Origin: [Archangium] primigenium
Lineage (GTDB): Bacteria > Myxococcota > Myxococcia > Myxococcales > Myxococcaceae
Length of the DNA stretch: 64,000 bases
Direction: 5' to 3'
NCBI RefSeq assembly: GCF_016904885.1
Contig: NZ_JADWYI010000001.1
Location: forward strand, 7,177,224 to 7,241,223
In this document: piece after piece, positions 15,187-27,062 of the stretch
Layout: each line of letters opens with the position of its first letter
Numbering within the stretch: position 1 is the first letter of the stretch
Notes under the pieces: model-generated
Databases searched by the model: none
Seen by the model: the letters and a program-made list of their open reading frames with translations, nothing else
Told to the model about the DNA's origin: nothing
Translations under genes and position numbers: made by a program

Positions 15187-16766
15187 ACGCGGCCAACCTG
15201 GGGCGGATCCTCGGCGTCTTCGGGCTGGTGCTGCTGCTCTCCAGTCCCTTCACCTTCTTCTTCACCTCGGGCTCGCCCACCGTGGCCGGCATCAAGGCGG
15301 GCGTGGGCGCGGTGCTCGTGGCGGTGTCCTTCGCCACGAACTACCGGCGCCTGGGCCAGTTCGCCTCGCGCCGCTCGAGCTTCTTCTTCATCCAGTCCAC
15401 GCTCCTGGTGCTCGCGGTGCTGGGCATCCTGGTGGCGCTCAACTACCTGGCCCACCAGAAGAACCGGCGCTGGGATCTCACCGAGCGCCAGGTCTTCACC
15501 CTGTCGGCCCTGACGCGCGGCACGCTCGCCCAGCTCACCGAGCCCGTCCAGGTGCTCGCCTTCATCCCGCCGGAGCACACCGCCTACGAGGCCCTGCGCA
15601 CCACCTTCGAGCGCTACCACGCCGAGGCGCCCGACAAATTCGACTACGCGTTCCGGGATCCCCGGCGCTATCCGGACCTGGCGGCGAAGTACGAGCTGAG
15701 CGACGGCCAGATGCAGGTGGTGCTCACGCGGGGAGAGGGCGAGCAGCAGTCCCACACCCGGCTCAACGTCGTGAGCGAGCAGGAGCTCACCAGCGCCATC
15801 CTGCGGCTGGGCGCCAGCCGCGAGCAGCACGTGTACTTCACCGTGGGCCATGGCGAGTGGTCGCTGGATCAGACGGTTCCGCGCCCCGGCCAGGCCGGGC
15901 GGACGGTGAGCCTGGCGCGGATGAAGCAGCAGCTCACGCTGGAGGGCTACTCCACGCGGGCGCTGAACCTCGGGGGCGGCACGCGCGTGCCCGCCAACAG
16001 CGCGCTGGTGGTCATCGCCGGGCCCAAGGCCCCCTTCGGCGCGCCCGAGGTGGACTCGCTGGCCGCCTACCTGAACGAAGGGGGTCGGCTGCTCTACTTC
16101 GCCGAGGCCTATGGCGACCCGGGTCCGGAGCTGGCGGCGCTGCTGGCGCGCTACGGCGTGCGGGTGGAGCCGGGCGTCATCGCCGACGGCCAGTTCAACG
16201 GCGGCAACCCCTACGTCGTGGTGTCGCTCTTCTTCGGAGACCACGAGATCGCCCGGCCCCTGCGCCAGCGTCAGCTCAACATCCAACTGCCCACGGCGCG
16301 AGGGCTCGCCACGAACACCGAGGGCGAGGCGGCGGACGTGAAGCCCGTGCCCGTGGTGCTCACCTCGCCCTTTGGCTGGGTGGAGACGAACCCCGACGAC
16401 AAGCCCTACCCCGACGCGAGCGAGCGCCGGGGCAACATCCCCCTGGTCATCGCCAGCACCCGCGACGTCTCCATGAATCCGCGCCGGAGCGACGACCAGG
16501 CCCGGGTGGTCGTGGTGGGTGACTCCGAGGTGCTGTTCGACTCCAACTGGGGCCACGAGGGCAACCGCAACCTGGTGATGAACGTCTTTGGATGGCTCAC
16601 CCACCAGGACAACAAGATCAGCATCCGGCCCCCGGATCGGGCCTATTCCACCATTCCCCTGGACGCGGAGTTGATCGCCCGCCTCCGCTTCATCTCGGCC
16701 GACGTGCTACCCCTCTCGCTGCTGTGCGTGGGGCTGGCCATCTGGCTCACGAGGCGCAACCAGTGA
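15183..16766 (+). CDS. GldG-like ABC-transporter-associated protein (ABC-type uncharacterised transport system auxiliary component)
   Basis: The internal ATG at 15183 overlaps the permease stop (ATGA). The track ORF beginning at 14820 reads through the permease in another frame. N- and C-terminal TM segments flank a large periplasmic domain. Confidence 0.8.
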   Translation: MNAANLGRILGVFGLVLLLSSPFTFFFTSGSPTVAGIKAGVGAVLVAVSFATNYRRLGQFASRRSSFFFIQSTLLVLAVLGILVALNYLAHQKNRRWDLTERQVFTLSALTRGTLAQLTEPVQVLAFIPPEHTAYEALRTTFERYHAEAPDKFDYAFRDPRRYPDLAAKYELSDGQMQVVLTRGEGEQQSHTRLNVVSEQELTSAILRLGASREQHVYFTVGHGEWSLDQTVPRPGQAGRTVSLARMKQQLTLEGYSTRALNLGGGTRVPANSALVVIAGPKAPFGAPEVDSLAAYLNEGGRLLYFAEAYGDPGPELAALLARYGVRVEPGVIADGQFNGGNPYVVVSLFFGDHEIARPLRQRQLNIQLPTARGLATNTEGEAADVKPVPVVLTSPFGWVETNPDDKPYPDASERRGNIPLVIASTRDVSMNPRRSDDQARVVVVGDSEVLFDSNWGHEGNRNLVMNVFGWLTHQDNKISIRPPDRAYSTIPLDAELIARLRFISADVLPLSLLCVGLAIWLTRRNQ

Positions 16767-18232
16767 ACGCCACCCAGAAGAATGTCGTCACCCTGCTGGC
16801 CACCGTGGCGGTGGCCGTCGCCCTGGGCTTCTACGCCTTCGTCGGGGACAAGACCCCCACCGCGCCGCCGCCGCCCCCGCCCGAGGAGCCCCCCGCGCTG
16901 CTCGGCCGCCAGGACGCGGGCACCGTCGCCGCCGAGGCCCCTCCACCCCTCGTCATGGCCATCGCCCTGGACACCCCTCGGGGCAAGCTGGCGCTGGAGC
17001 GGCAGGAGGAGGGCTGGCGCATCACCGAGCCCATTTCGTCCGCGGCGGACCAGCCGCTGGTGGAGACCCTGGCGCGCGAGCTGAGCGTGACGAAGTTCAA
17101 GAGCATCCTGGAGACGGCCCCCACCGAGGAGGACCTGGTGCGCTACGGCCTCCAGCCGCCCGTGGCCACCGCCCGCATCCGGCTCCGGGAGGGCGAGGCC
17201 TCGGGCCCGACCACGCTCACGCTTCAGTTGGGCAAGGACAACACCTTCGATGGCTCCATCTACGTGCGGCGCGAGGGCGACCCGCGCGTGTACCAGGCTC
17301 ACGGCGCGCTGCGCCTGGCGCTCTTCAAGGGCCTGGACGAGTGGCGCGACCGCCTGATCTTCCCGGTGGAGGAGCGCGCCCTGCTGCGCGTCGAGATCAA
17401 GGTTCGCGACAACCGCTACACCCTGGAGCGGCACGCCTCCGACCAGCCCTGGGAGCTGACGCGGCCGGTGACGATGCCCGCGGACACGGAGCGGGTGCGC
17501 GAGCTGGTGTCGGACCTCCGCGCGCGCCAGGCGCTCGGCTTCCCGGACGCGGCGCTGGAGACGCGCGTGCGCGAGGCCTTGAAGAAGCCCCTGGCGGAGC
17601 TGGCCTTCGTGCCCACCCTGGGCGCGCCCATGCGCGCGCGCGTCGCCAGCCTCGTCGTGGACGGGGGTCCCCGGGTGTACGCGCTGTGGGAAGGCCACGG
17701 GGAGCCCATGCTCGCCCAGGTGGACTCGTCCCTGTTCAACGTCATCGACCTGAAGCCCGCGGACCTCAAGACCCGGCAGGTGCTCTCCCTGCCCTCCGGT
17801 AGCATCGACCGCATCGTCATCCAGCCCGAGGGCGATGTGCCGCCCGTGCTCCTGCAGCTGGCCGCGGACGCGGGGCAGTGGGAGGTGGTGTCACCCCTGC
17901 CCGGTCGCGCCAAGCAGTTCGCCGTGGTGTCCCTGTTGGGCGCGCTGCGCAAGCTCGAGGCGCAGCGCGTGGCGGAGGCCCACCCCAAGAACCTGGCGCG
18001 CTACGGCCTCACCCCGAAGTCCGTCAGCGTGACGCTGCTGGACCCCGGGGGCCAGCAGCTCGCCCGCCTGTGGGTTGGCGCCCCCGTCACCGGCATGCCC
18101 CAGCGGCTCTGGGCCCAGGGCACCTCGGGCGACATTCTGGAGGTGGACAAGGCGAGCATCGACGCCCTGCCCCTGTCCCTCGAGGCCCTGATGGCCCAGA
18201 CGTCCCAGGGCGCCGCGCCTGGGGGCGGCTAG
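16763..18232 (+). CDS. DUF4340-like protein commonly encoded after gldG-type genes
   Basis: The GTG at 16763 overlaps the GldG-like stop (GTGA); the track ORF begins at an upstream GTG at 16592. It begins VNATQKNVVTLLATVAVAVALGFYAF (TM anchor), followed by a Pro-rich linker and a periplasmic domain. Fourth gene of the operon. Confidence 0.7.
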   Translation: MNATQKNVVTLLATVAVAVALGFYAFVGDKTPTAPPPPPPEEPPALLGRQDAGTVAAEAPPPLVMAIALDTPRGKLALERQEEGWRITEPISSAADQPLVETLARELSVTKFKSILETAPTEEDLVRYGLQPPVATARIRLREGEASGPTTLTLQLGKDNTFDGSIYVRREGDPRVYQAHGALRLALFKGLDEWRDRLIFPVEERALLRVEIKVRDNRYTLERHASDQPWELTRPVTMPADTERVRELVSDLRARQALGFPDAALETRVREALKKPLAELAFVPTLGAPMRARVASLVVDGGPRVYALWEGHGEPMLAQVDSSLFNVIDLKPADLKTRQVLSLPSGSIDRIVIQPEGDVPPVLLQLAADAGQWEVVSPLPGRAKQFAVVSLLGALRKLEAQRVAEAHPKNLARYGLTPKSVSVTLLDPGGQQLARLWVGAPVTGMPQRLWAQGTSGDILEVDKASIDALPLSLEALMAQTSQGAAPGGG

Positions 18233-19092
18233 GGCTCGTTGCCGAACGGATCGCCGAGCCCGCAGCCCCGGCCCGGCGCCTCGCCCATGCCGCGCTGCTT
18301 CTCGTCCCAGGAGCGGCCGTCGCGGTAGCCCCAGTGGTTGATGTCCACGATGTAGTTGACCTTGGAGATGAGCGTGCCGCGGCACAGGCGCTCGTCCCAG
18401 TTGCCTTCCTTGAGCGTGTCGAGCGTGCGCGACATGAGCTCCGTCATGAGCCAGGTGGGCACGAGGTCACGCTCGCACGGGTAGGCGAAGCGGAACATCA
18501 TCAGGTGGCTGAGCAGCACTTCCCAGTACCGGTCGAAGCGGCGCAGGAGCCGCGCCCAGTCCATGCCGTGCCCCATCTTGAGGATGAGGTGGTTGATGTC
18601 CGCGCCGTCATAGCGCTCGCGCTCGGTGACGAAGGCCTTGGACCAGATGGTCTCCTCGGCCGGGGACACCAGGCACTCGTGGCCGAACACCGGGGCGCGC
18701 CGCGCGTGCTCGAACCACTCGTCATCCACCGTGGCCACGCCGTTGCCCGAGGAGAAGATGAAGTCCACGAAGTAGTCGCCCCGCCAGGCCTTGTAGAGCC
18801 ACGCCTCGTCGGTGCGCTCGGTGCGCCAGCCGTCCTTCTCCAGCACCCGGAGCGCGTGCTGGGCGTCGTGCTTGCGGGGGAACAGGTCCAGGTCCTTCGT
18901 GTCCCGGTAGATGCCCGTATAGGTGGAGTACGCGTAGGCGCCTCCGACCAGGAAGGGGACGCCGGCGTCGAGCAGCACCTCGATGGCACGGCCCCGCGTG
19001 TTGAGTTCCTCGGGGTGACGCTGTCGCTCGGCCAGCGAGGCGTCGATGCCCATCTCCCCCGGATGATTGGAGTCTCGCTTTTCCGTTTCCAT
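18229..19092 (-). CDS. Nucleotidyltransferase-fold protein (minimal NTase family; function unknown)
   Basis: NTase-fold signature VGGAYAYSTYTGIYRDTKDLDLF (GG...DxD). 287 aa. Convergent with the ABC operon. Confidence 0.6.
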   Translation of the reverse strand: METEKRDSNHPGEMGIDASLAERQRHPEELNTRGRAIEVLLDAGVPFLVGGAYAYSTYTGIYRDTKDLDLFPRKHDAQHALRVLEKDGWRTERTDEAWLYKAWRGDYFVDFIFSSGNGVATVDDEWFEHARRAPVFGHECLVSPAEETIWSKAFVTERERYDGADINHLILKMGHGMDWARLLRRFDRYWEVLLSHLMMFRFAYPCERDLVPTWLMTELMSRTLDTLKEGNWDERLCRGTLISKVNYIVDINHWGYRDGRSWDEKQRGMGEAPGRGCGLGDPFGNEP

Positions 19093-19304
19093 GGAGGGAA
19101 GGTAGGAACGGGACTTATAGGTGCCTCAAAAGCGGTCCAATCCGCCTGGAGGGCAGCCAACCGTCCTGGCCAAGACCCTGGAACTCCTGGGGTTTTGCTT
19201 TTCGTGAGGGGGCGCTTTCTGTTTTCGCGCCCAGCGGTGTCCCTCCAGATGGAAGGGCTCACGGCGGCCATGAGGCCGCGGGGCCCCTCGCGAGGGGATG
19301 ACAC

Positions 19305-20285
19305 ATGACGACGCACACGAAGCTGTTGATGGCCGCGCTGGTGCTCACGGGCTGTGGCCGCATGGACGCGGCGACCGAGTTCCGCTCCGCCCTGCCCACT
19401 CGGGAGCAGGTGGAGGTGGGTGAGCCCCAGCAGAAGGGTCAGGCGCTCCGGGCGGACGAGGCCGTCCAGGGGCTCGAGCGCGACAAGACGAGTGAGCTGT
19501 ACCAGCTCACGCGCACCACCACGGCGTTCGTCAACGGCAACACCGTGGCCATCCTGGCGCTCATCGGCCGGGTGACGGAGCACACCCCCACGAGCCTCAC
19601 CGACGACACCGCGGTGTGGGGCCCCTACACCGAGGCGCTGGCGCGCAACGCCTGGCGGCTCACGGTGAAGAAGACGGGCGAGAACACCTACGCCTACGTG
19701 CTCGCGGGCAAGAACAAGCAGGCGGCGGACTCGGCCTTCGCCGACGTGCTCACCGGCACGCACACCCCCGTGCTGGACGAGGCCGGTGAGGTGACCAAGG
19801 GCTTTGGCCAGGGCGAGCTGGTGGTCGACTCGGACCGCCTGAAGAACCTGGGCGAGAGCGAGTCCGGAGAGGGCGCCCTGAGCGTGCAGTACGCGCGCCC
19901 GGACAGCACCAGCGCCGTCACCGTGAACGCGCAGTTCCGCCTGGGCCAGGGCAACAAGAGCCGCGAGGCCGACTACCGCTACCGCGCCGTGCCCGGCCAG
20001 GGGGGCGAGTTCGACTTCAAGATGCAGCGCGACCTGTACAAGCCGGCGGGCTCGTCCCAGCTGCTGGAGGACATCACCATCAAGAGCCGCTGGCAGGAGA
20101 CGGGCGCTGGCCGCTCGGACGTCAAGCTGTCGGGCGGGGACCTGGCGGCCGAGGCCACCCTCAACGAGTGCTGGAACACGGGCTTCAACAGCGCCTACCT
20201 GTTCTTCAGCCTCGAGGCCCAGCCGCGCTACGGCGTCGAGGCCACCGACTGCGTCTTCACGCCCGCCGTCTATTCGGCGTTGTAA
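19305..20285 (+). CDS. Hypothetical lipoprotein (paralogue of 23216..24178)
   Basis: Lipoprotein signal MTTHTKLLMAALVLTGCG. It shares conserved blocks with the downstream lipoprotein (TPTxxxDDTAVWGPY...; C-terminal ECWNTGF...TDCVF versus ECWDTRF...SACPDV). Confidence 0.7.
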   Translation: MTTHTKLLMAALVLTGCGRMDAATEFRSALPTREQVEVGEPQQKGQALRADEAVQGLERDKTSELYQLTRTTTAFVNGNTVAILALIGRVTEHTPTSLTDDTAVWGPYTEALARNAWRLTVKKTGENTYAYVLAGKNKQAADSAFADVLTGTHTPVLDEAGEVTKGFGQGELVVDSDRLKNLGESESGEGALSVQYARPDSTSAVTVNAQFRLGQGNKSREADYRYRAVPGQGGEFDFKMQRDLYKPAGSSQLLEDITIKSRWQETGAGRSDVKLSGGDLAAEATLNECWNTGFNSAYLFFSLEAQPRYGVEATDCVFTPAVYSAL

Positions 20286-20319
20286 GCTCTCCGCTCCCTC
20301 CGGGAGAGAAGAGGAGTGC

Positions 20320-20859
20320 GTGGCAGGCTCGACCCCATCCGCCCTGAAGGTCATCGCTGGCGGCCAGAAGGACCGGCGCGTCTTCCTGCGCGAGCTGTAC
20401 ACGGCGTACGGCGGCGGCGTGTACGGCCGCTGCCGCTACCTGCTCAAGGACGCCACGAAGGCCGAGGACGCGATGCAGGAGGTGTTCGCGCGCGTCCTGC
20501 AGCAGTCGGACCTGCCGCGCCAGGAGGGCACCACCCTGGCGTGGTTGATGAAGATCACCACCCACCACTGCCTCAACCTCTTGCGCGCCGAGCGGGCCCC
20601 CTGGCGGCGCTGGTTCGAGCGCGACGCGCGGGCCCGGCCCGAGGGCGCCGGGGGTGAGCAGGAGATGGAGACCCGGGAACTGGTGCGCTCGCTGCTCTCG
20701 CGCGTGGACCTGGAGACCCAGGCGGCGGTGGTGCACTACTGGGTGGATGACATGACGCTGGAAGAGGTGGCCGCGCTGGTGGGCCGCTCGGTCCCCACGG
20801 TGCGCAAGCGCCTGGAGGGCTTCGCCGCCCTGACGAACGAGGAGCTGAGGGTCTCATGA
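20320..20859 (+). CDS. ECF-family RNA polymerase sigma factor
   Basis: GTG start preceded by GGAGAGAAGAGGAG. Region 2 (DAMQEVFARVLQQ) and region 4 HTH (MTLEEVAALVGRSVPTVRKRL). Confidence 0.85.
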   Translation: MAGSTPSALKVIAGGQKDRRVFLRELYTAYGGGVYGRCRYLLKDATKAEDAMQEVFARVLQQSDLPRQEGTTLAWLMKITTHHCLNLLRAERAPWRRWFERDARARPEGAGGEQEMETRELVRSLLSRVDLETQAAVVHYWVDDMTLEEVAALVGRSVPTVRKRLEGFAALTNEELRVS

Positions 20860-21608
20860 GCGCGCATCAGACGGAATGGACGTTGAGGCGACTGCGCGCC
20901 GGGGAGTTCTCCGGCACGGAGGCGCGGCAGATCCAGGCCCACCTGACGACCTGCTCCCCGTGCGCGCAGGTGCTCCAGCGACTGGAAGAGGAACAGACGC
21001 GCTTCGAGGCGCAGGTGCCCTTCGAGCGCTTCGAGGCGGGGGTGCTCGGCGCCCAGCGCGACCCGCGCCACACGCCCGCGCAGCCGCGCGTCAACGGCTT
21101 CCTCGTGGCGGTGGCGGCCACGGTGCTGCTCGCGGTGGTCGTGCGGCCCCTGCTCGAGCCCGAGGGCGGCAACCGGCTCAAGGGCGGCGGGGCCTCGGCG
21201 GACTTGCGCATCGGGGGCGGCGGGCCCCAGCGCTCGGTGCCGCCCGGGGAGCTGGAGCCGCTGCTGCCCGGCGAGCGCGCGCGCCTGGGGTACGTGGCCG
21301 GGCCCCACCAGTACGTGCTGGCGGTGTCGGTGGATGACACGGGCGAGGTCTCCACCTTGTACGCCGAGGAGGAGCGGAGCCTGCCGGTGAAGCCCGGCAC
21401 GGAGCGGCACTGGTTGCCCGAGAGCCTGGAGTTCACCGGCAAGGGACAGGAGCGGGTGATGGTGCTGCTGAGCGACCGCCCCCTGAGGGTGGAGGCCGTG
21501 CGAGAAGCGGCGCGCACCGCCTGGGAGCGCGCGGGCGGCAAGGTGTCCGACATGACGCCGCTCGGCCTGGAAGGCGAGGAGATCCACTGGCTGCTGCGCA
21601 AGCCATGA
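20856..21608 (+). CDS. Anti-sigma factor (zinc-finger ZAS-type N-terminus, single TM, extracytoplasmic domain)
   Basis: Overlaps the sigma stop (ATGA). HLTTCSPCAQ motif (HxxxCxxC). TM helix GFLVAVAATVLLAVVV. Confidence 0.8.
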   Translation: MSAHQTEWTLRRLRAGEFSGTEARQIQAHLTTCSPCAQVLQRLEEEQTRFEAQVPFERFEAGVLGAQRDPRHTPAQPRVNGFLVAVAATVLLAVVVRPLLEPEGGNRLKGGGASADLRIGGGGPQRSVPPGELEPLLPGERARLGYVAGPHQYVLAVSVDDTGEVSTLYAEEERSLPVKPGTERHWLPESLEFTGKGQERVMVLLSDRPLRVEAVREAARTAWERAGGKVSDMTPLGLEGEEIHWLLRKP

Positions 21609-23203
21609 GCCGCGGGGGTTGGGCCGGGTGGTGCCTGGCGCTGTGGCTGGCGTGCGGGAGCGCCCAGGCCGCGCCCCTGCGCCGCTTCGCCCTGGTGGCG
21701 GGCAATGACGAGGGGGGCGCGGACACCCGCCCCTTGCGCTTCGCGACCGAGGACGCGCGCAAGCTGCACGCGCTGCTCGTGCGGCTCGGCGGCGTGGCGC
21801 TCGGGGACGCGCGGCTGCTGCTGGACGCCGGGCCGGAGGACTTCCTGCGCGCGCTCGCCCAGTTGGAGCGGGAGTCGGCCGCGGCGCGGGCCCGGGGCGA
21901 GCGCACCGAGCTGCTCGTCTACTACTCGGGGCACGCGAAGGACGACACGCTGCGCATGGGCACCCAGACGCTGGGGCTCGACACGCTCAAGCACCGGCTG
22001 GCGGCCGCGCCCGCGGACGTGCGCATCGCCATCCTGGATGCGTGCCGCTCCGGCCGCATCACGCGCGCCAAGGGCGCCCGCCGGGCCCCGGCCTTCAGCA
22101 TCGACGCGGGCGCGGGACGCGAGGCGCGGGGGCTGGTGCTGCTCACCTCCAGCGCGGCGGACGAGGACTCGCAGGAGTCGGATCTGCTCGGGGGCAGCTA
22201 CTTCACCCACCACCTGCTCAGCGGGCTCATGGGGGACGCGGATCGCTCGGGCGACGGGCAGGTGACGCTCTTCGAGGCCTACTCCCATGCCTACGCGCGC
22301 ACGGTGGCGGACACGGCGGACAGCGGCGCCGGGCCCCAGCACCCCACGTTCAGCTACGACCTGTCCGGCAACGGCGACGTGGTGCTCACGGACCTGCGGG
22401 GCCGCGACGAGGGGCTGCTCGTCCCGGCGTCCGCGCCTCCGGGCCCCTACTACTTCGTGAATGGCGCGGGGCTGGTGGTGGCCGAGGTGGACAAGGCCGC
22501 GGGTACCGAGCGCCGCCTCGCGCTGGCCCCGGGCGCCTACGCGGTGAAGCGGCGGCTGTCGGATCGGCTGCGGGTGGGCCAGATCGAGGTGCGGCGCGGG
22601 GACACCACCGTGCTCGACGAGTCCCGGCTGCGCGACGCGCCCTTCTCGGACGATCCCGTCAAGGGCGTGCCGCCCCTGCCCCGGCCCCGGCGCACCTACT
22701 GGACGCTCGGCGTCAACGCCGGCTACCACTCCGTCTTCGACGCCCCCGCGCGCGAGAACCTCTTCCTGGCCACGCCCCTCGTCGGACTGGAAGGCGGCCT
22801 GTTCCACTACTTCCGCGAGGACTGGCGCTGGGACCTGGACGTGTCCATGGGCACGCGCCGGGCCACGCTGAACCTGCCCACCCTCTCGGGACCGGCCTAT
22901 CGCTACACCCTGCTGACCGCGGGCACCTCGCTCGTGGCCGAGTGGCCTCGGGGGCGGTGGAGCCCGTTTCTGGGCGCGCGCCTGGCCTACCTCGTCGTGA
23001 ACCGGACCTTCGACGACCCGGACCTGCCCACGCAGTACTACGCGGTGTTCACCCCGGGCGTGGTGGCGGGCGCGCGCTGGCGGCTCACGGACCACGTCGA
23101 GCTGACCGCTCGCGCCCGCGGCCATTACCTCCTCTACACCGTCGACGCGCGTCGCTCCCTGGGCTACTGGGAGCTGGGCGCGCTCGTGACCTACCGACTC
23201 TGA
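21605..23203 (+). CDS. Secreted caspase-family (peptidase C14) protein with C-terminal beta-barrel-like domain
   Basis: Overlaps the anti-sigma stop (ATGA). Signal peptide MSRGGWAGWCLALWLACGSAQA. Catalytic His (YYSGHAKDD) and Cys (ILDACRSG) of the caspase His-Cys dyad. The C-terminal ~230 aa show alternating hydrophobic beta-strand patterns. Confidence 0.8.
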   Translation: MSRGGWAGWCLALWLACGSAQAAPLRRFALVAGNDEGGADTRPLRFATEDARKLHALLVRLGGVALGDARLLLDAGPEDFLRALAQLERESAAARARGERTELLVYYSGHAKDDTLRMGTQTLGLDTLKHRLAAAPADVRIAILDACRSGRITRAKGARRAPAFSIDAGAGREARGLVLLTSSAADEDSQESDLLGGSYFTHHLLSGLMGDADRSGDGQVTLFEAYSHAYARTVADTADSGAGPQHPTFSYDLSGNGDVVLTDLRGRDEGLLVPASAPPGPYYFVNGAGLVVAEVDKAAGTERRLALAPGAYAVKRRLSDRLRVGQIEVRRGDTTVLDESRLRDAPFSDDPVKGVPPLPRPRRTYWTLGVNAGYHSVFDAPARENLFLATPLVGLEGGLFHYFREDWRWDLDVSMGTRRATLNLPTLSGPAYRYTLLTAGTSLVAEWPRGRWSPFLGARLAYLVVNRTFDDPDLPTQYYAVFTPGVVAGARWRLTDHVELTARARGHYLLYTVDARRSLGYWELGALVTYRL

Positions 23204-23215
23204 CGGGAGCGCGTG

Positions 23216-24178
23216 ATGCGAACCTGCGCACTGGGACTGCTGGGCCTGCTCGCCACCGCGTGTGGCGGCAACTTCTCCAACGACGACCTCGAGTTCCTCA
23301 ACGCCCTGCCCGCGCGCACGCAGCTCATGTCCAAGCTGCCCCGGCGCCAGGCCACGGGGCAGGCCCTGACCGCGCGCCCCCTCGCGGACAAGCCCATCGC
23401 CGTGGGAGACCCCTCGGGCCTCTACGCGCAGACCCATGAGGCCTCGGAGCGGTTCAACGCGGCGCTCGAGGGGTTGCTCACGAGGCTCGAGCGCATCCGC
23501 GCCCAGACGCCCACGACGCGCGAGCCGGACCTGCGCATCTGGGGGCCGGTGGAGGACCGGGAGCACACCGGCCACCAGGTGCGCTTCGTCATGACACGGC
23601 GGGAGGGCTTCTTCACGTACCAGCTCCAGTACAAGCCCCGGGGCCAGGGCGAGGAGGGCTGGTGGTCCTTCGTGGAGGGCACCTTCGAGGCGCAGGGCGG
23701 GCTGCGCGAGGGCACGGGCACGGTGAGCCTCCAGGTCGCCCTGGCGCGCGCCCATGGCTTCGACCTGGGCGGCCTCGCGAGCTACCGGCGGCTGGACGTG
23801 GCCTACCAGACGCGCGAGCCGCCCCTGCGGGTGCAGATGGACTTCGTGCCGACGGGCCTGGGGCGCGCGGCCCTGCGCTACACCTACCGCGAGGCGCGCG
23901 AGGGCTTCGGGGAGATGACCTTCCTGCTCGAGGACACCGCCGTGCTGCCGGGCAACCAGCGCGCGGACCTGTCCGTCCTCAGCCGGTGGACGCAGGCCGG
24001 TGACGGGGTGGCGCGCGCCGTGGCCACGGGCGGTGACATCCCCCCGGCGCTCGACGTCACCCAGGTGGAGTGCTGGGACACCCGCTTCGGCATCACCTAC
24101 TTCCAGCGCGGCTGGGAGGCGGACAGCGAGGTGGGCCACCCCAGCGCCTGTCCGGACGTGTCCCTGCTCGCGCGCTGA
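23216..24178 (+). CDS. Hypothetical lipoprotein (paralogue of 19305..20285)
   Basis: ATG at 23216 (the track starts at GTG 23213). Lipobox LLATACGG. Conserved blocks are shared with the upstream lipoprotein. Confidence 0.7.
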   Translation: MRTCALGLLGLLATACGGNFSNDDLEFLNALPARTQLMSKLPRRQATGQALTARPLADKPIAVGDPSGLYAQTHEASERFNAALEGLLTRLERIRAQTPTTREPDLRIWGPVEDREHTGHQVRFVMTRREGFFTYQLQYKPRGQGEEGWWSFVEGTFEAQGGLREGTGTVSLQVALARAHGFDLGGLASYRRLDVAYQTREPPLRVQMDFVPTGLGRAALRYTYREAREGFGEMTFLLEDTAVLPGNQRADLSVLSRWTQAGDGVARAVATGGDIPPALDVTQVECWDTRFGITYFQRGWEADSEVGHPSACPDVSLLAR

Positions 24179-24188
24179 GCCCGTGCGC

Positions 24189-25595
24189 TCACATGTCCTC
24201 GAGCTCCTTGTTCTTCGTCTCGCGCACGAAGAAGATCACGAAGAAGAGCGAGGCCACCGCGGCCGCGGTGTACAGCCCGTAGGCGAGCCCCAGGCTCACC
24301 GTGCGCAGGCTCGGGAAGGTCGCCGAGACGACGAAGTTGGCCACCCACTGCGCGCAGCCGGCGAGCGACAGGGCCCGGGCGCGGATGCGGTTGTTGAACA
24401 TCTCCCCGAGCAGCACCCACACCACCGGCCCCCACGACAGGCCGAAGCAGAAGACGTAGACGTTGGCGGCCACCAGGGCGATCACGTTCGAGTGGCCTTG
24501 CAGCAGGGGCGTGCCCGAGGCATCCACCGGGGCCGTGCCGAACACGAACGCCAGCGTGCCGAGCGTGAGCGCCATGCCCACCGAGCCCACGATGAGCAGG
24601 GGCTTGCGCCCGAAGCGGTCCACGGTGGCGATGGCGATGAAGGTGGTGACGATGTTGGTGACGCTGGTGATGACGGTGATGGCCAGCGAGTCCTTCTCCG
24701 AGAAGCCCACCGCCTGCCAGAGGATGCTCGAGTAGTAGAAGATGACGTTGATGCCCACGAACTGCTGGAACACCGACAGCGCGATGCCCGCCCACACGAT
24801 GGGCAGCAGGCCCAGGCGCCCGCGCAGGTCCGCGAACCGGCTGCGCTCCTCGGTGGAGATCGTGCGGCGGATCTCCCCCATCTTCGCCTCCGCGCCCCGG
24901 CCGATGATGGTGCGCAGCACGGACAGCGCCTTGTCGTCGCGCCGCTTGGCCACGAGGTAGCGCGGCGACTCGGGAATCATGAGCGCCCCCACGCCGTAGA
25001 GCACGGCGATGGGCAGCTCGGACAGGAGCATCCAGCGCCAGGCGGACAGGCCGAGCCAGTAGGGGTTCTCCGCGGAGCCGGCCGAGGTGGCGATGAAGTA
25101 GTCCACGAGCAGCGCGGAGAAGATGCCCGTCACGATCGCCAGTTGCTGCAGGGAGCCGAGCCGCCCCCGGAGGTGCGCTGGCGCGATCTCCGCGATGTAC
25201 GCCGGCGCGATGACGCTGGCGATGCCCACCGCGATGCCGCCCACCAGTCGCCACAGGCTCAGGTCCACGAGCCCGAAGGCCAGGCCCGAGCCCACGGTGC
25301 TCACGGCGAAGAGCACCGAGGCCACCACCATCACCCGGATGCGGCCCAGCCGGTCGGCGAGCTGTCCTCCGACGAACGCGCCCACCGCCGAGCCGAGCAG
25401 CGCCGAGGACACCGCCAGGCCGATGGCGGTGTCGCCCGCCTGGAACACCGCGGCCAGGGCCCCCACCGTGCCGTTGATGACGGAGGTGTCGAAACCGAAC
25501 AGGAAGCCGCCCAGGGCCGCCACCGAGGAGATGAGAACGACCTTGGGGACCGAGCCTTCCTCGGCCACCGCCGCGCCTGCGCGCACCCGCTCCAT
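24189..25595 (-). CDS. MFS sugar porter family transporter
   Basis: 468 aa with 12 TM segments. Sugar-porter motifs (GRLGRIRVM..., PESPRYL, RFGRKPLLIVG, VRETKNKELEDM end). Confidence 0.9.
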   Translation of the reverse strand: MERVRAGAAVAEEGSVPKVVLISSVAALGGFLFGFDTSVINGTVGALAAVFQAGDTAIGLAVSSALLGSAVGAFVGGQLADRLGRIRVMVVASVLFAVSTVGSGLAFGLVDLSLWRLVGGIAVGIASVIAPAYIAEIAPAHLRGRLGSLQQLAIVTGIFSALLVDYFIATSAGSAENPYWLGLSAWRWMLLSELPIAVLYGVGALMIPESPRYLVAKRRDDKALSVLRTIIGRGAEAKMGEIRRTISTEERSRFADLRGRLGLLPIVWAGIALSVFQQFVGINVIFYYSSILWQAVGFSEKDSLAITVITSVTNIVTTFIAIATVDRFGRKPLLIVGSVGMALTLGTLAFVFGTAPVDASGTPLLQGHSNVIALVAANVYVFCFGLSWGPVVWVLLGEMFNNRIRARALSLAGCAQWVANFVVSATFPSLRTVSLGLAYGLYTAAAVASLFFVIFFVRETKNKELEDM

Positions 25596-25700
25596 CCACG
25601 CCTCCCGGTCAACGGGCCCACTCGCGGATCCAACATCCGCACGCCGGGCGCCGCGTCATCCCCCCTTCGCGCCGGGATGTTCGCCGCTGAAACCTCGCGC

Positions 25701-27062
25701 TCAGGCCGAGCCCATCACCGCCACCCGCGAGGACAGGAGCTCCTCGGGGATGGGCAGGGTGATGCGCAGGCGGGCCCCGCCCTCGGGCCGGTTGCTCGCC
25801 GTGAGGGCCCCGCCGAACTGCTCCACCAGCTCGCGCGACAGGTTGAGCCCCAGCCCGGTGCCCCGCTCCGGCCCCTTGGTGGTGAAGAAGGCCTCGAAGA
25901 GCCGGGGCAGGACGTGGGGGGCGAAGCCCGGGCCGTTGTCCTCCACGAGCAGCACCACGTTGGCGCCCTCGATCCGGCCCGTCACCCAGATCTCCCCCGC
26001 CTGCCCGCCCCGCGACTCCAGCACGTCCGCCGCGTTGACGAGCAGGTTGAGCACCACCTGCACCAGCCGCTGCCGCACCGCCACCACGTGCGGCAGATCC
26101 ACGGGCACGTCCGTGCGCAAGAGCGCCACGTGCCGCAGCTTGAGCGACGCGAGCTTCATGGCGTCGGCCACCACGTCCGCCAGGGCACACTCGGCCGTCT
26201 CGTTCGTGTCCATCCGGGAGAAGCCCTTGAGGTCCGCGACGATCTGCTGGATGTGCTGCACGCCCACGCGCGTCTCGGAGAGAACCTCGGCCAGGGCCTC
26301 GCGGTCCAGGGAGGCGGCGGCCAGGAGCTCCTCGCGCACGAAGTCCACGTTGGAGCCCACGTAGGCCAGGGGGTTGCTCACCTCGTGTGCCACCCCCGAC
26401 GCCAGTCGGCCCACGATGGCCAGCTTCTCCGACTGCGCGCGCCGGTGCTCGCTCTGGGCCAGGGCCTCCAGCGTCTCGCGCCGCGCGCGCTCGAGCCGCA
26501 TCTGCTGCTCGGCCTGGTGCACGTAGAGCGCCTGACGGCAGAGCACGTCCGCCAGCACCCCCACCCCCAGCATGAGCATCAACCAAGTGCTCGCCTCGGG
26601 CAGGGGCCGGTGCCACAGCAGCACGAGCACGCCGGTGCCCAGCAGCCCCATGGCGCTGCTGATGAAGGTGGCGCGGCGGTTCTGCCCGAACAACAGGGCG
26701 ATGCTCATCGGCATGATGGGCAGCAGGATGACGAAGGGGCTGTCCAGCCCGCCCATCTCGTGCACCAGGCCCACGATGCACATGCTGCTGAGCACGAGCG
26801 ACACGTACTGCGTCCCGCGCCCCAGCGGCGTGGAGGGCCGCGCGTGCACCTCGCGCATGACCAGCAGGCAGCCCAGCACCGTCGCCCGGTAGAGCAGCGC
26901 CCGGCCGTTGATCCGGCCCAGGTAGAGCAGATCCACCACCACCGAGCCGAGCAGCAGCGCGGTGAGCGCCAGCATGGACTGGTTGTTCCAGAAGAAATGG
27001 GACCGATGGGCTCCGGGCACGGGGGGGTGTTTTCCAGAAGGACGGAGCGGGGAGTTGATCAT
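25701..27062 (-). CDS. Membrane-bound sensor histidine kinase (multi-TM N-terminus, HisKA + HATPase_c); no adjacent response regulator
   Basis: H-box SGVAHEVSNPLAYV; N box; G1 DNGPGF; G2 GTGLGL. 5-6 N-terminal TM helices. The start may be an internal Met. Confidence 0.8.
   Translation of the reverse strand: MINSPLRPSGKHPPVPGAHRSHFFWNNQSMLALTALLLGSVVVDLLYLGRINGRALLYRATVLGCLLVMREVHARPSTPLGRGTQYVSLVLSSMCIVGLVHEMGGLDSPFVILLPIMPMSIALLFGQNRRATFISSAMGLLGTGVLVLLWHRPLPEASTWLMLMLGVGVLADVLCRQALYVHQAEQQMRLERARRETLEALAQSEHRRAQSEKLAIVGRLASGVAHEVSNPLAYVGSNVDFVREELLAAASLDREALAEVLSETRVGVQHIQQIVADLKGFSRMDTNETAECALADVVADAMKLASLKLRHVALLRTDVPVDLPHVVAVRQRLVQVVLNLLVNAADVLESRGGQAGEIWVTGRIEGANVVLLVEDNGPGFAPHVLPRLFEAFFTTKGPERGTGLGLNLSRELVEQFGGALTASNRPEGGARLRITLPIPEELLSSRVAVMGSA

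Follow-up and report, generated by a model that had tools for sequence, protein, structure and literature searches.

What does a caspase-family protease do when its gene is locked into an operon with a sigma factor and the cognate anti-sigma factor? This question is raised by a locus in a window of 64,000 nucleotides (G+C content of about 70%) from [Archangium] primigenium (NCBI RefSeq assembly GCF_016904885.1, contig NZ_JADWYI010000001.1, positions 7,177,224 to 7,241,223), where the genes for a sigma factor of the extracytoplasmic function (ECF) type (20320-20859, 179 amino acids), an anti-sigma factor (20856-21608, 250 amino acids) and a caspase-family protein (21605-23203, 532 amino acids) follow one another on the forward strand. 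As stated in the initial annotation of this region, the three genes overlap by ATGA at both junctions (20856-20859 and 21605-21608), which is borne out by the coordinates of the open reading frames and by the sequence itself. The analysis presented here suggests that the operon is probably a self-activating envelope-signalling unit. The most specific version of this idea, to which we assign somewhat less than an even chance, is that the caspase faces the periplasm and is the site-1 protease that cuts the anti-sigma factor, releasing a sigma factor that regulates its own operon.

The first step toward an answer is the constancy of the gene arrangement. With one genome scanned for each GTDB species, relatives are encoded at 241 places; 80 of these loci, all from Myxococcota and representing both Myxococcia and Polyangia, were analysed; neighbours were counted only for those loci where the contig extends far enough, and all of them are collinear with the caspase gene. 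The anti-sigma gene accompanies the caspase gene in all 78 loci with room for it (77 by script, with one more, L054, lying outside the scoring window), the sigma gene in 76 of 76, and a lipoprotein gene that we denote lipoB, likewise, in 76 of 76, whereas another lipoprotein gene, lipoA, is found upstream of the sigma gene in 70 of 73 and is absent from L013, L016 and L018. The linkage of the trio, which the initial annotation had singled out for a co-occurrence analysis, thus holds wherever the contig allows it to be seen. The 4-nucleotide overlap between the sigma and anti-sigma genes is kept in 71 of 78 loci, and the anti-sigma and caspase genes overlap (by -4 or -1) in 39 of 80; in L054 (5020-6001), which comes from a metagenome-assembled genome (MAG), the latter two genes are about 1 kb apart, with the usual overlap replaced. 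Where a genome has two copies, it is the entire module that is duplicated: the additional Cystobacter fuscus copy (L016) groups with that of Archangium minus (L018) for sigma factor, anti-sigma factor, caspase and lipoB alike. The gene order and identities given in the initial annotation stand, but the operon is larger than the trio described there, with two lipoprotein genes flanking it: the predicted transcription unit consists of five genes, namely, lipoA, the ECF sigma factor, the anti-sigma factor, the caspase-outer-membrane protein and lipoB, and has its own conserved putative promoter.

Beyond these loci, the association reaches much further. A profile search of 1.84 billion representatives, clustered at 50% identity, places 2,735 clusters in the caspase family at E<=1e-30, and the named members come from Myxococcota or MAGs labelled 'Deltaproteobacteria'. 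Many of the distant relatives, 500-830 amino acids in length, match the caspase only over residues ~10-350 and have other beta-rich C-termini; of the five whose sequences were read, four end in F and one, P0386, does not. In each of the seven cases where upstream sequence is available, an ECF sigma factor, a protein of 234-274 amino acids and the caspase are encoded in this order, among unrelated flanking genes and without the lipoprotein genes. The six middle proteins whose sequences were read all lack the HxxxCxxC motif that characterizes the anti-sigma factors closer to the one in the window, and all six have a transmembrane helix followed by R-x-[KR]-G as well as a DUF4384-like pattern (detectable with Pfam in four of the six) with a conserved C-terminal Lys, mostly in the form K-x-P. 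Because these distant relatives keep the trio without the zinc motif or the lipoproteins, the conserved unit, as judged from sequence comparison, is the trio of sigma factor, anti-sigma factor and caspase, with the zinc site and the lipoproteins being additions of particular lineages. Two of the distant caspases, P0388 and P0405, contain, in their C-terminal halves, long arrays of ~20-residue repeats of the type G-x-Q-[VA]-x-G-x-x-N, which belong to no Pfam family and precede a terminal barrel-like segment ending in F; these repeats may be a beta-helical spacer between the caspase and a membrane anchor.

The architecture of the caspase is what gives this linkage a topological meaning. The protein matches Pfam Peptidase_C14 (PF00656) with 39.6 bits against a cut-off of 21.4, and its C14 domain (residues 25-253; 21677-22363) follows a signal peptide (21605-21670) with a cleavage site placed by eye after AQA22. 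Loss of the catalytic residues in orthologues, which the initial annotation took as grounds for giving up its proposal, is not seen: H110 (21932-21934) and C147 (22043-22045) are invariant in 78 database homologues and in 83 locus-derived orthologues, and so are, among the latter, D145 and the segment LTSSxxDEDSQESD. In profile alignments, YSGH and DSCxSG line up with metacaspase-1 of Candida glabrata; DSCxSG, which is invariant as well, and SSxxDEDSQESD both resemble metacaspase motifs. The pocket residues of metacaspases are established determinants of cleavage after Arg or Lys, and, given this chemistry, the caspase of the operon would be predicted to cleave after Lys or Arg.

An AlphaFold2 model built from the 78 homologues (mean predicted local distance difference test score, pLDDT, of 80) adds to the C14 domain a beta-sandwich (residues 260-345; 22382-22639), a disordered tether with an invariant DDPVK353-G354 (346-364; 22640-22696) and an 8-stranded beta-barrel modelled mostly at pLDDT above 90 (365-531; 22697-23200). 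Foldseek searches of the PDB retrieve metacaspases (7qp0, 9n3e), MALT1 (4i1p) and caspase-6 with the N-terminal half, and OmpA, NspA, Ail and OmpX with the barrel (TMt 0.64-0.76), for which Pfam gives no more than an OMP_b-brl hint at residues 363-509 (E=0.025). The C-terminal aromatic residue of the beta-signal is absent from the caspase in the window, which ends in TYRL, so that insertion into the outer membrane is predicted from the fold rather than from this signal. In barrels of the OmpA type, with their even number of strands, the N-terminus is periplasmic; because the caspase domain is part of an N-terminal extension of such a barrel, it would, if the model is right, face the periplasm together with the beta-sandwich, on a flexible tether. 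The secreted caspase-fold protease of the initial annotation accordingly keeps its signal peptide, its C14 domain and its catalytic His and Cys, but is predicted to be tethered to the outer membrane through the C-terminal barrel rather than set free.

Two of the sequenced relatives are of separate interest with regard to the caspase. In Myxococcus xanthus CP017170 (L085, 4996-9975), the same module is present with the caspase gene interrupted by an IS66-family element, leaving a 198-amino-acid Peptidase_C14 fragment ahead of genes for TnpB_IS66 and DDE_Tnp_IS66, beyond which lies lipoB; this strain is a natural caspase knock-out. In Stigmatella aurantiaca (L001, 5225-7587), UniProt names the anti-sigma factor 'ActD, putative' and the caspase 'ActD' (P0198 and P0070). 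These legacy names hint that M. xanthus ActD, a protein of the act operon, which times the production of the C-signal, may unite caspase and DUF4384 domains; the Stigmatella locus has no actA or actB neighbours.

The partner of the caspase, the anti-sigma factor, has the layout attributed to it in the initial annotation, with a cytoplasmic HxxxCxxC motif, one transmembrane helix and a periplasmic domain, as supported by motif conservation and a single hydrophobic helix. The cytoplasmic part (about 20856-21065) contains H29-x3-C33-x2-C36, where, among the myxococcotal orthologues, both cysteines are invariant and H29 is at least 90% conserved, as is H4, a fourth candidate ligand located 25 residues upstream of H29, a spacing that equals the one between H6 and H31 of ChrR. 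The match to Pfam zf-HC2 (21.2) is slightly below the cut-off of 22.2, and profile matches to ChrR, DdvA and RsiW are weak (E 0.1-0.6); by the H-x3-C-x2-C motif and the upstream ligand, the N-terminus is assigned to the class I zinc-binding anti-sigma (ZAS) domains. Outside the transmembrane helix (about residues 81-97; about 21096-21146) come the juxtamembrane motif R107-L-K109-G (21174-21188) and a DUF4384-like domain with a C-terminal K-P (about 21198-21485), which is recognized through weak profile matches: 22 of 25 orthologues match DUF4384 (PF14326) weakly, with a best E-value of 1.3e-5, and some orthologues have a precomputed PF14326 match or the NCBI name 'DUF4384 domain-containing protein'. 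Published surveys describe DUF4384 as fused to orthocaspases, to a family of trypsin and pseudo-caspase proteins and to Ser/Thr kinases, and in one group of Csx30 proteins, which bind RpoE and are substrates of the caspase-like protease Csx29, it likewise forms the C-terminal domain (bioRxiv 10.1101/2022.08.17.504292). Many NCBI and UniRef entries of this anti-sigma family (P0122, P0125, P0127 and others) are named 'ACP synthase', which looks like a propagated misannotation.

A short motif links the two proteins. Among the five operon proteins there are just two instances of the pattern R-x-K-G-[GA], against an expectation of 0.07 from their composition: one in the linker between the caspase subunits (R154-x-K156-G157; 22064-22075) and one in the anti-sigma linker, about ten residues outside the transmembrane helix. 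R154, K156 and G157 of the caspase are invariant in 83 sequences and lie in a segment modelled at pLDDT 30-38; in the anti-sigma factor, K109 is present in 81 of 81 sequences and is followed by G in 79, with R107 retained in 72. Enzymes of the caspase family classically process themselves in the inter-subunit linker and, because this linker carries the matching motif here, R-x-K109-G of the anti-sigma factor becomes a candidate cleavage site for the caspase. The breadth of the trio, the DUF4384-like domain and the shared R-x-K-G together make a functional link between caspase and anti-sigma factor more likely.

If the caspase acts upon the anti-sigma factor, what does the liberated sigma factor transcribe? 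The sigma protein consists of the sigma2 and sigma4 regions only, as ECF (group IV) factors do. It matches Pfam Sigma70_r2 (E=1.7e-11) and NCBIfam TIGR02937 (sigma70-ECF, 56.5 against a cut-off of 42.9), with Sigma70_r4_2 scoring 24.7 bits, slightly below the cut-off of 25.7, and its closest counterparts of known structure are SigE, SigK, R. sphaeroides RpoE and SigW; its gene starts with GTG, 5 nucleotides downstream of an AGGAG ribosome-binding site. Upstream of the operon, at 19213..19245 on the forward strand and 60 nucleotides before lipoA, we detected a bipartite promoter-like motif, CGCTTTCTGTTTT-N-GCGGTGTCCCT, with the family consensus CcTTTTCTGTTT-N9-GCyGTGTCCAT. De novo dyad counting, which replaced the canonical ECF pattern [GT]GAAC-N14-19-CGT[ACT] after the latter was found in only one of 73 upstream regions (L056), recovers TTTCT-N16-GTGT in 57 of the 73. 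From 64 loci we derived a position weight matrix (PWM), which, applied with a threshold of 14, has a single match in the whole window, with a score of 32.4. The related loci contain one match each, always on the coding strand and upstream of the first gene by 50-125 nucleotides; where lipoA is missing, as it is in three loci, the motif is found directly upstream of the sigma gene.

The geometry of the motif and its GTGTC element, which resembles a -10 box and includes GTC, fit ECF promoters, so that 19213-19245 is likely to be the ECF-type promoter of the operon, and its use by the sigma factor encoded there, which would amount to autoregulation, is what we infer from this arrangement. Across ~1 Mb of related loci, there is only one extra PWM site, in L079, a Myxococcales MAG, where a motif with a score of 30 is located at ~7454, within the caspase gene's 3' end and upstream of lipoB. 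An exact-pattern scan of metagenomes returned, among the matches listed, mostly chance occurrences in low-GC contigs; of the nine contigs with a GC content of at least 0.66 among them, six contain the operon's own promoter and three are incomplete or too short for a judgement. Between the motif and lipoA (19246-19304) lies a hairpin, GCGGCC-ATGA-GGCCGC, and most of the loci from Myxococcaceae and Archangiaceae have a GC-rich hairpin in this position (for example, GGCCCGC-loop-GCGGGCC); across loci, the pairing is kept, the sequence varies and no run of T follows.

These elements can be assembled into a tentative scheme. The anti-sigma factor would hold the sigma factor in the cytoplasm through its zinc-type domain and present the DUF4384-like domain in the periplasm on a short linker. 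An envelope-derived signal would activate the caspase, probably through self-processing between Lys and Gly of the inter-subunit R-x-K-G; the caspase would then make the site-1 cut in the anti-sigma factor, between K109 and the following Gly of the juxtamembrane motif; an RseP-type intramembrane protease would take the remaining stub, freeing the sigma factor; and the sigma factor would transcribe the operon from the conserved promoter, with the two lipoproteins, which are lineage-specific accessories, conceivably acting as modulators or sensors.

Several considerations weigh against this scheme and account for our caution. In ECF systems, the gene of a known site-1 protease does not, as a rule, accompany that of the sigma factor, and a self-activated operon with a co-induced site-1 protease would be subject to strong positive feedback. 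Neither in the 64-kb window nor in the flanking sequence does the PWM find a further promoter site that would point to the output of the sigma factor. The shared motif was noticed post hoc, and R/K-G sites are short. DUF4384, being found also on Ser/Thr kinases, is not specific to caspases, and the anti-sigma factor of the window itself matches it with E=0.22 and 12.1 bits against a gathering score of 27. The outer-membrane tether and the short inner-membrane linker would together have to reach across the periplasm, which, without a release of the caspase at K353-G354, is at best roughly feasible, and the zinc motif conserved in this clade allows a redox input that is independent of any protease.

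The alternative that fares best turns the caspase from a protease of the anti-sigma factor into a FecA-like sensor or transducer that is, at the same time, a target of the sigma factor: the outer-membrane protein would contact the DUF4384 domain to pass the signal, a Prc-, DegS- or CtpA-like protease would make the site-1 cut in the anti-sigma factor, and the substrates of the caspase would be other envelope proteins. Such an arrangement fits equally well with a predicted anchor in the outer membrane, with a gene that is always linked to those of sigma and anti-sigma factor and with the predicted co-transcription from the operon promoter. However, it leaves unexplained both the R-x-K-G that is shared by the anti-sigma and caspase linkers, where it is invariant, and the invariance of the catalytic dyad in what would be a mere transducer. 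Furthermore, Pfam and NCBIfam searches with the five operon proteins gave no match to FecR, Plug or TonB_dep_Rec and showed no TonB-box features. Altogether, we consider this alternative unlikely.

It is also conceivable, although we rate the prospect as rather poor, that the protease is purely an output, with the sigma/anti-sigma pair sensing some other cue, such as thiol oxidation at the zinc site, and the envelope protease remodelling or degrading, together with the lipoproteins, periplasmic or outer-membrane proteins in stress, development or predation. The conservation of the zinc ligands H4, H29, C33 and C36 in this clade is compatible with such sensing; ECF operons often carry their own effectors, and the sole copy of the promoter that was found would drive the operon genes. 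Against this stand the distant trios, which lack HxxxCxxC but keep both the trio and the juxtamembrane motif, so that redox sensing does not appear to be the conserved input; moreover, the strict one-to-one linkage and the duplication of the module as a unit would be uncommon in a mere effector. A module for anti-phage defence or conflict, comparable to the DdvS/DdvA-controlled island or to caspase-based abortive infection systems, is very improbable, because the weak matches of the caspase to the NCBIfam 'caspase, EACC1-associated type' family (63 bits, with the cut-off at 140) and to a generic caspase model of PADLOC (E=0.0023), and the defence links of the closest precedents, are set against the lack of any PADLOC system match for the other four operon proteins, a predicted periplasmic, membrane-anchored location of the caspase, the absence of nuclease, NTPase or CRISPR neighbours and a locus that, rather than being a variable island, is syntenic across genera among housekeeping genes (DUF4340, rpoZ, groES/EL).

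The proposal that the caspase cuts the anti-sigma factor can be extended from the single operon to the entire family, and here we become more hesitant, regarding the general claim as somewhat doubtful. In this form, the trio would be a widespread and hitherto unrecognized trans-envelope signalling device in which the anti-sigma factor has a site-1 protease dedicated to it, the outer-membrane-tethered caspase, and presents an R-x-K-G that, cut after the Lys, mimics the maturation linker of the enzyme. Should that be the case, the device could report the state of the envelope, for example, outer-membrane protein assembly or the distance between the inner and outer membranes, because the protease itself would be an outer-membrane protein dependent on the beta-barrel assembly machinery (BAM) and held on a flexible tether.

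The forward-strand gene lipoA (19305..20285) encodes a lipoprotein of 326 amino acids with the lipobox LTGC, and lipoB (23216..24178, same strand), the final gene, one of 320 amino acids when read from the ATG at 23216, with the lipobox Cys16 and two further cysteines (286 and 312) invariant. The two proteins are paralogous (27% identity, E=6e-15), and Pfam and NCBIfam searches assign neither of them to a family. Upstream (16592-19092) are a DUF4340 gene and a divergent gene for an NTP_transf_5 nucleotidyltransferase, in a synteny that is common to Stigmatella and M. xanthus. Downstream (24189-27062), the neighbour beyond lipoB is convergent and encodes a membrane protein of 468 amino acids, with a 453-amino-acid protein next to it; by eye, these are a sugar transporter and a histidine kinase. 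Scans of 18900-24400 detected no sigma-70-type promoter, no internal terminator and no relevant Rfam element.

How does the cassette compare with the systems in which caspase-like proteases and ECF sigma factors have already been brought together? The initial annotation considered the signalling logic undescribed; this can no longer be maintained, given the precedents of DdvA-DdvS of M. xanthus and the craspase proteins Csx29, Csx30 and RpoE. In the former, a periplasmic caspase-like CHAT domain has been proposed to carry out a self-cleavage ahead of RseP (PMC11506125). Both systems come from the same phylum, both pair an ECF sigma factor with a single-pass anti-sigma factor of the zinc type and have a caspase-fold His-Cys domain, periplasmic in DdvA and predicted to be so here, facing a flexible juxtamembrane linker, and in both, the caspase-like site-1 cut ahead of RseP is a proposal. 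In DdvA, however, CHAT and the anti-sigma factor form a single fused polypeptide, and CHAT would act upon itself in a dimer, whereas the present operon encodes a separate C14 metacaspase-like protein with a predicted outer-membrane anchor; the periplasmic TPR-CHAT part of DdvA comprises ~900 amino acids, compared to ~140 for the DUF4384-like domain of the operon's anti-sigma factor, which gave no CHAT or TPR match in profile searches over its 250 residues; and the operon is not associated with a defence island.

In type III-E craspase, the TPR-CHAT protease Csx29 cleaves Csx30, a protein that binds the ECF sigma factor RpoE together with Csx31 (bioRxiv 10.1101/2022.08.17.504292). Here, too, a caspase-like protease cuts a sigma-binding protein in the flexible linker between its sigma-binding N-terminal and its C-terminal domain, which is the event envisaged for the operon, and, in some Csx30 proteins, DUF4384 makes up the C-terminal domain. 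Craspase differs in being cytoplasmic and triggered by RNA via Cas7-11, in employing CHAT rather than C14, and in having neither an outer-membrane anchor nor a comparable membrane topology.

Two classical envelope pathways resemble the operon in other respects. With the sigma-E pathway, in which RseA is processed by DegS and RseP, it would have in common a single-pass anti-sigma factor, a membrane-near periplasmic site-1 cut, a site-2 protease and an input from the outer membrane; the site-1 protease in that case is, however, an inner-membrane serine protease that is activated by the C-termini of outer-membrane proteins and is not encoded with the sigma factor, whereas the candidate of the operon is a cysteine protease predicted to be an outer-membrane protein itself. 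Like FecA-FecR-FecI, the operon encodes together a beta-barrel protein predicted for the outer membrane, an anti-sigma factor of the inner membrane and a sigma factor of the ECF type, for what would be trans-envelope signalling, but its predicted barrel has 8 strands and carries a periplasmic protease, and there is no TonB-dependent transducer, FecR domain or signalling N-terminal extension.

As an enzyme, the caspase is closest to the orthocaspases and metacaspase-like C14 proteins, such as MaOC1 of Microcystis, with which it has in common the C14 fold, the His-Cys dyad, DxCxSG and an acidic p10-type motif, the last of these being a feature that also suggests cleavage after Arg or Lys; DUF4384, moreover, is a recurrent partner domain of orthocaspases. 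The forms described in the literature searched are cytoplasmic or inner-membrane proteins, and neither an outer-membrane barrel anchor nor an obligatory ECF linkage is described there. The main text of the ECF classification paper (PMC7826278) mentions no caspase, peptidase or DUF4384, and the literature searched, with the supplements on ECF classification lying outside the search, contains no description of a cassette of sigma factor, anti-sigma factor and outer-membrane caspase.

The functions and targets of bacterial caspase homologues are, to our knowledge, largely obscure, with the discussion concerned mostly with programmed cell death and few substrates defined. Against this background, the cassette offers a specific candidate substrate whose gene is linked to that of the caspase and in which the bond to be cut is predicted to be the one after K109, in a module that is present in culturable and genetically tractable myxobacteria, including M. 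xanthus. If the caspase indeed cuts the anti-sigma factor, this would be the first defined physiological substrate, and a signalling role other than death, for bacterial C14 caspase homologues, and DUF4384 would acquire a function in at least one context. The cassette is set apart from DdvA and craspase by its separate C14 protease with a predicted outer-membrane anchor, the DUF4384-like domain of its anti-sigma factor and the size of its family; it would then represent, after these two, a third and mechanistically distinct form of caspase-type control over an ECF sigma factor, which would suggest that the pairing of such proteases and sigma factors recurs in evolution.

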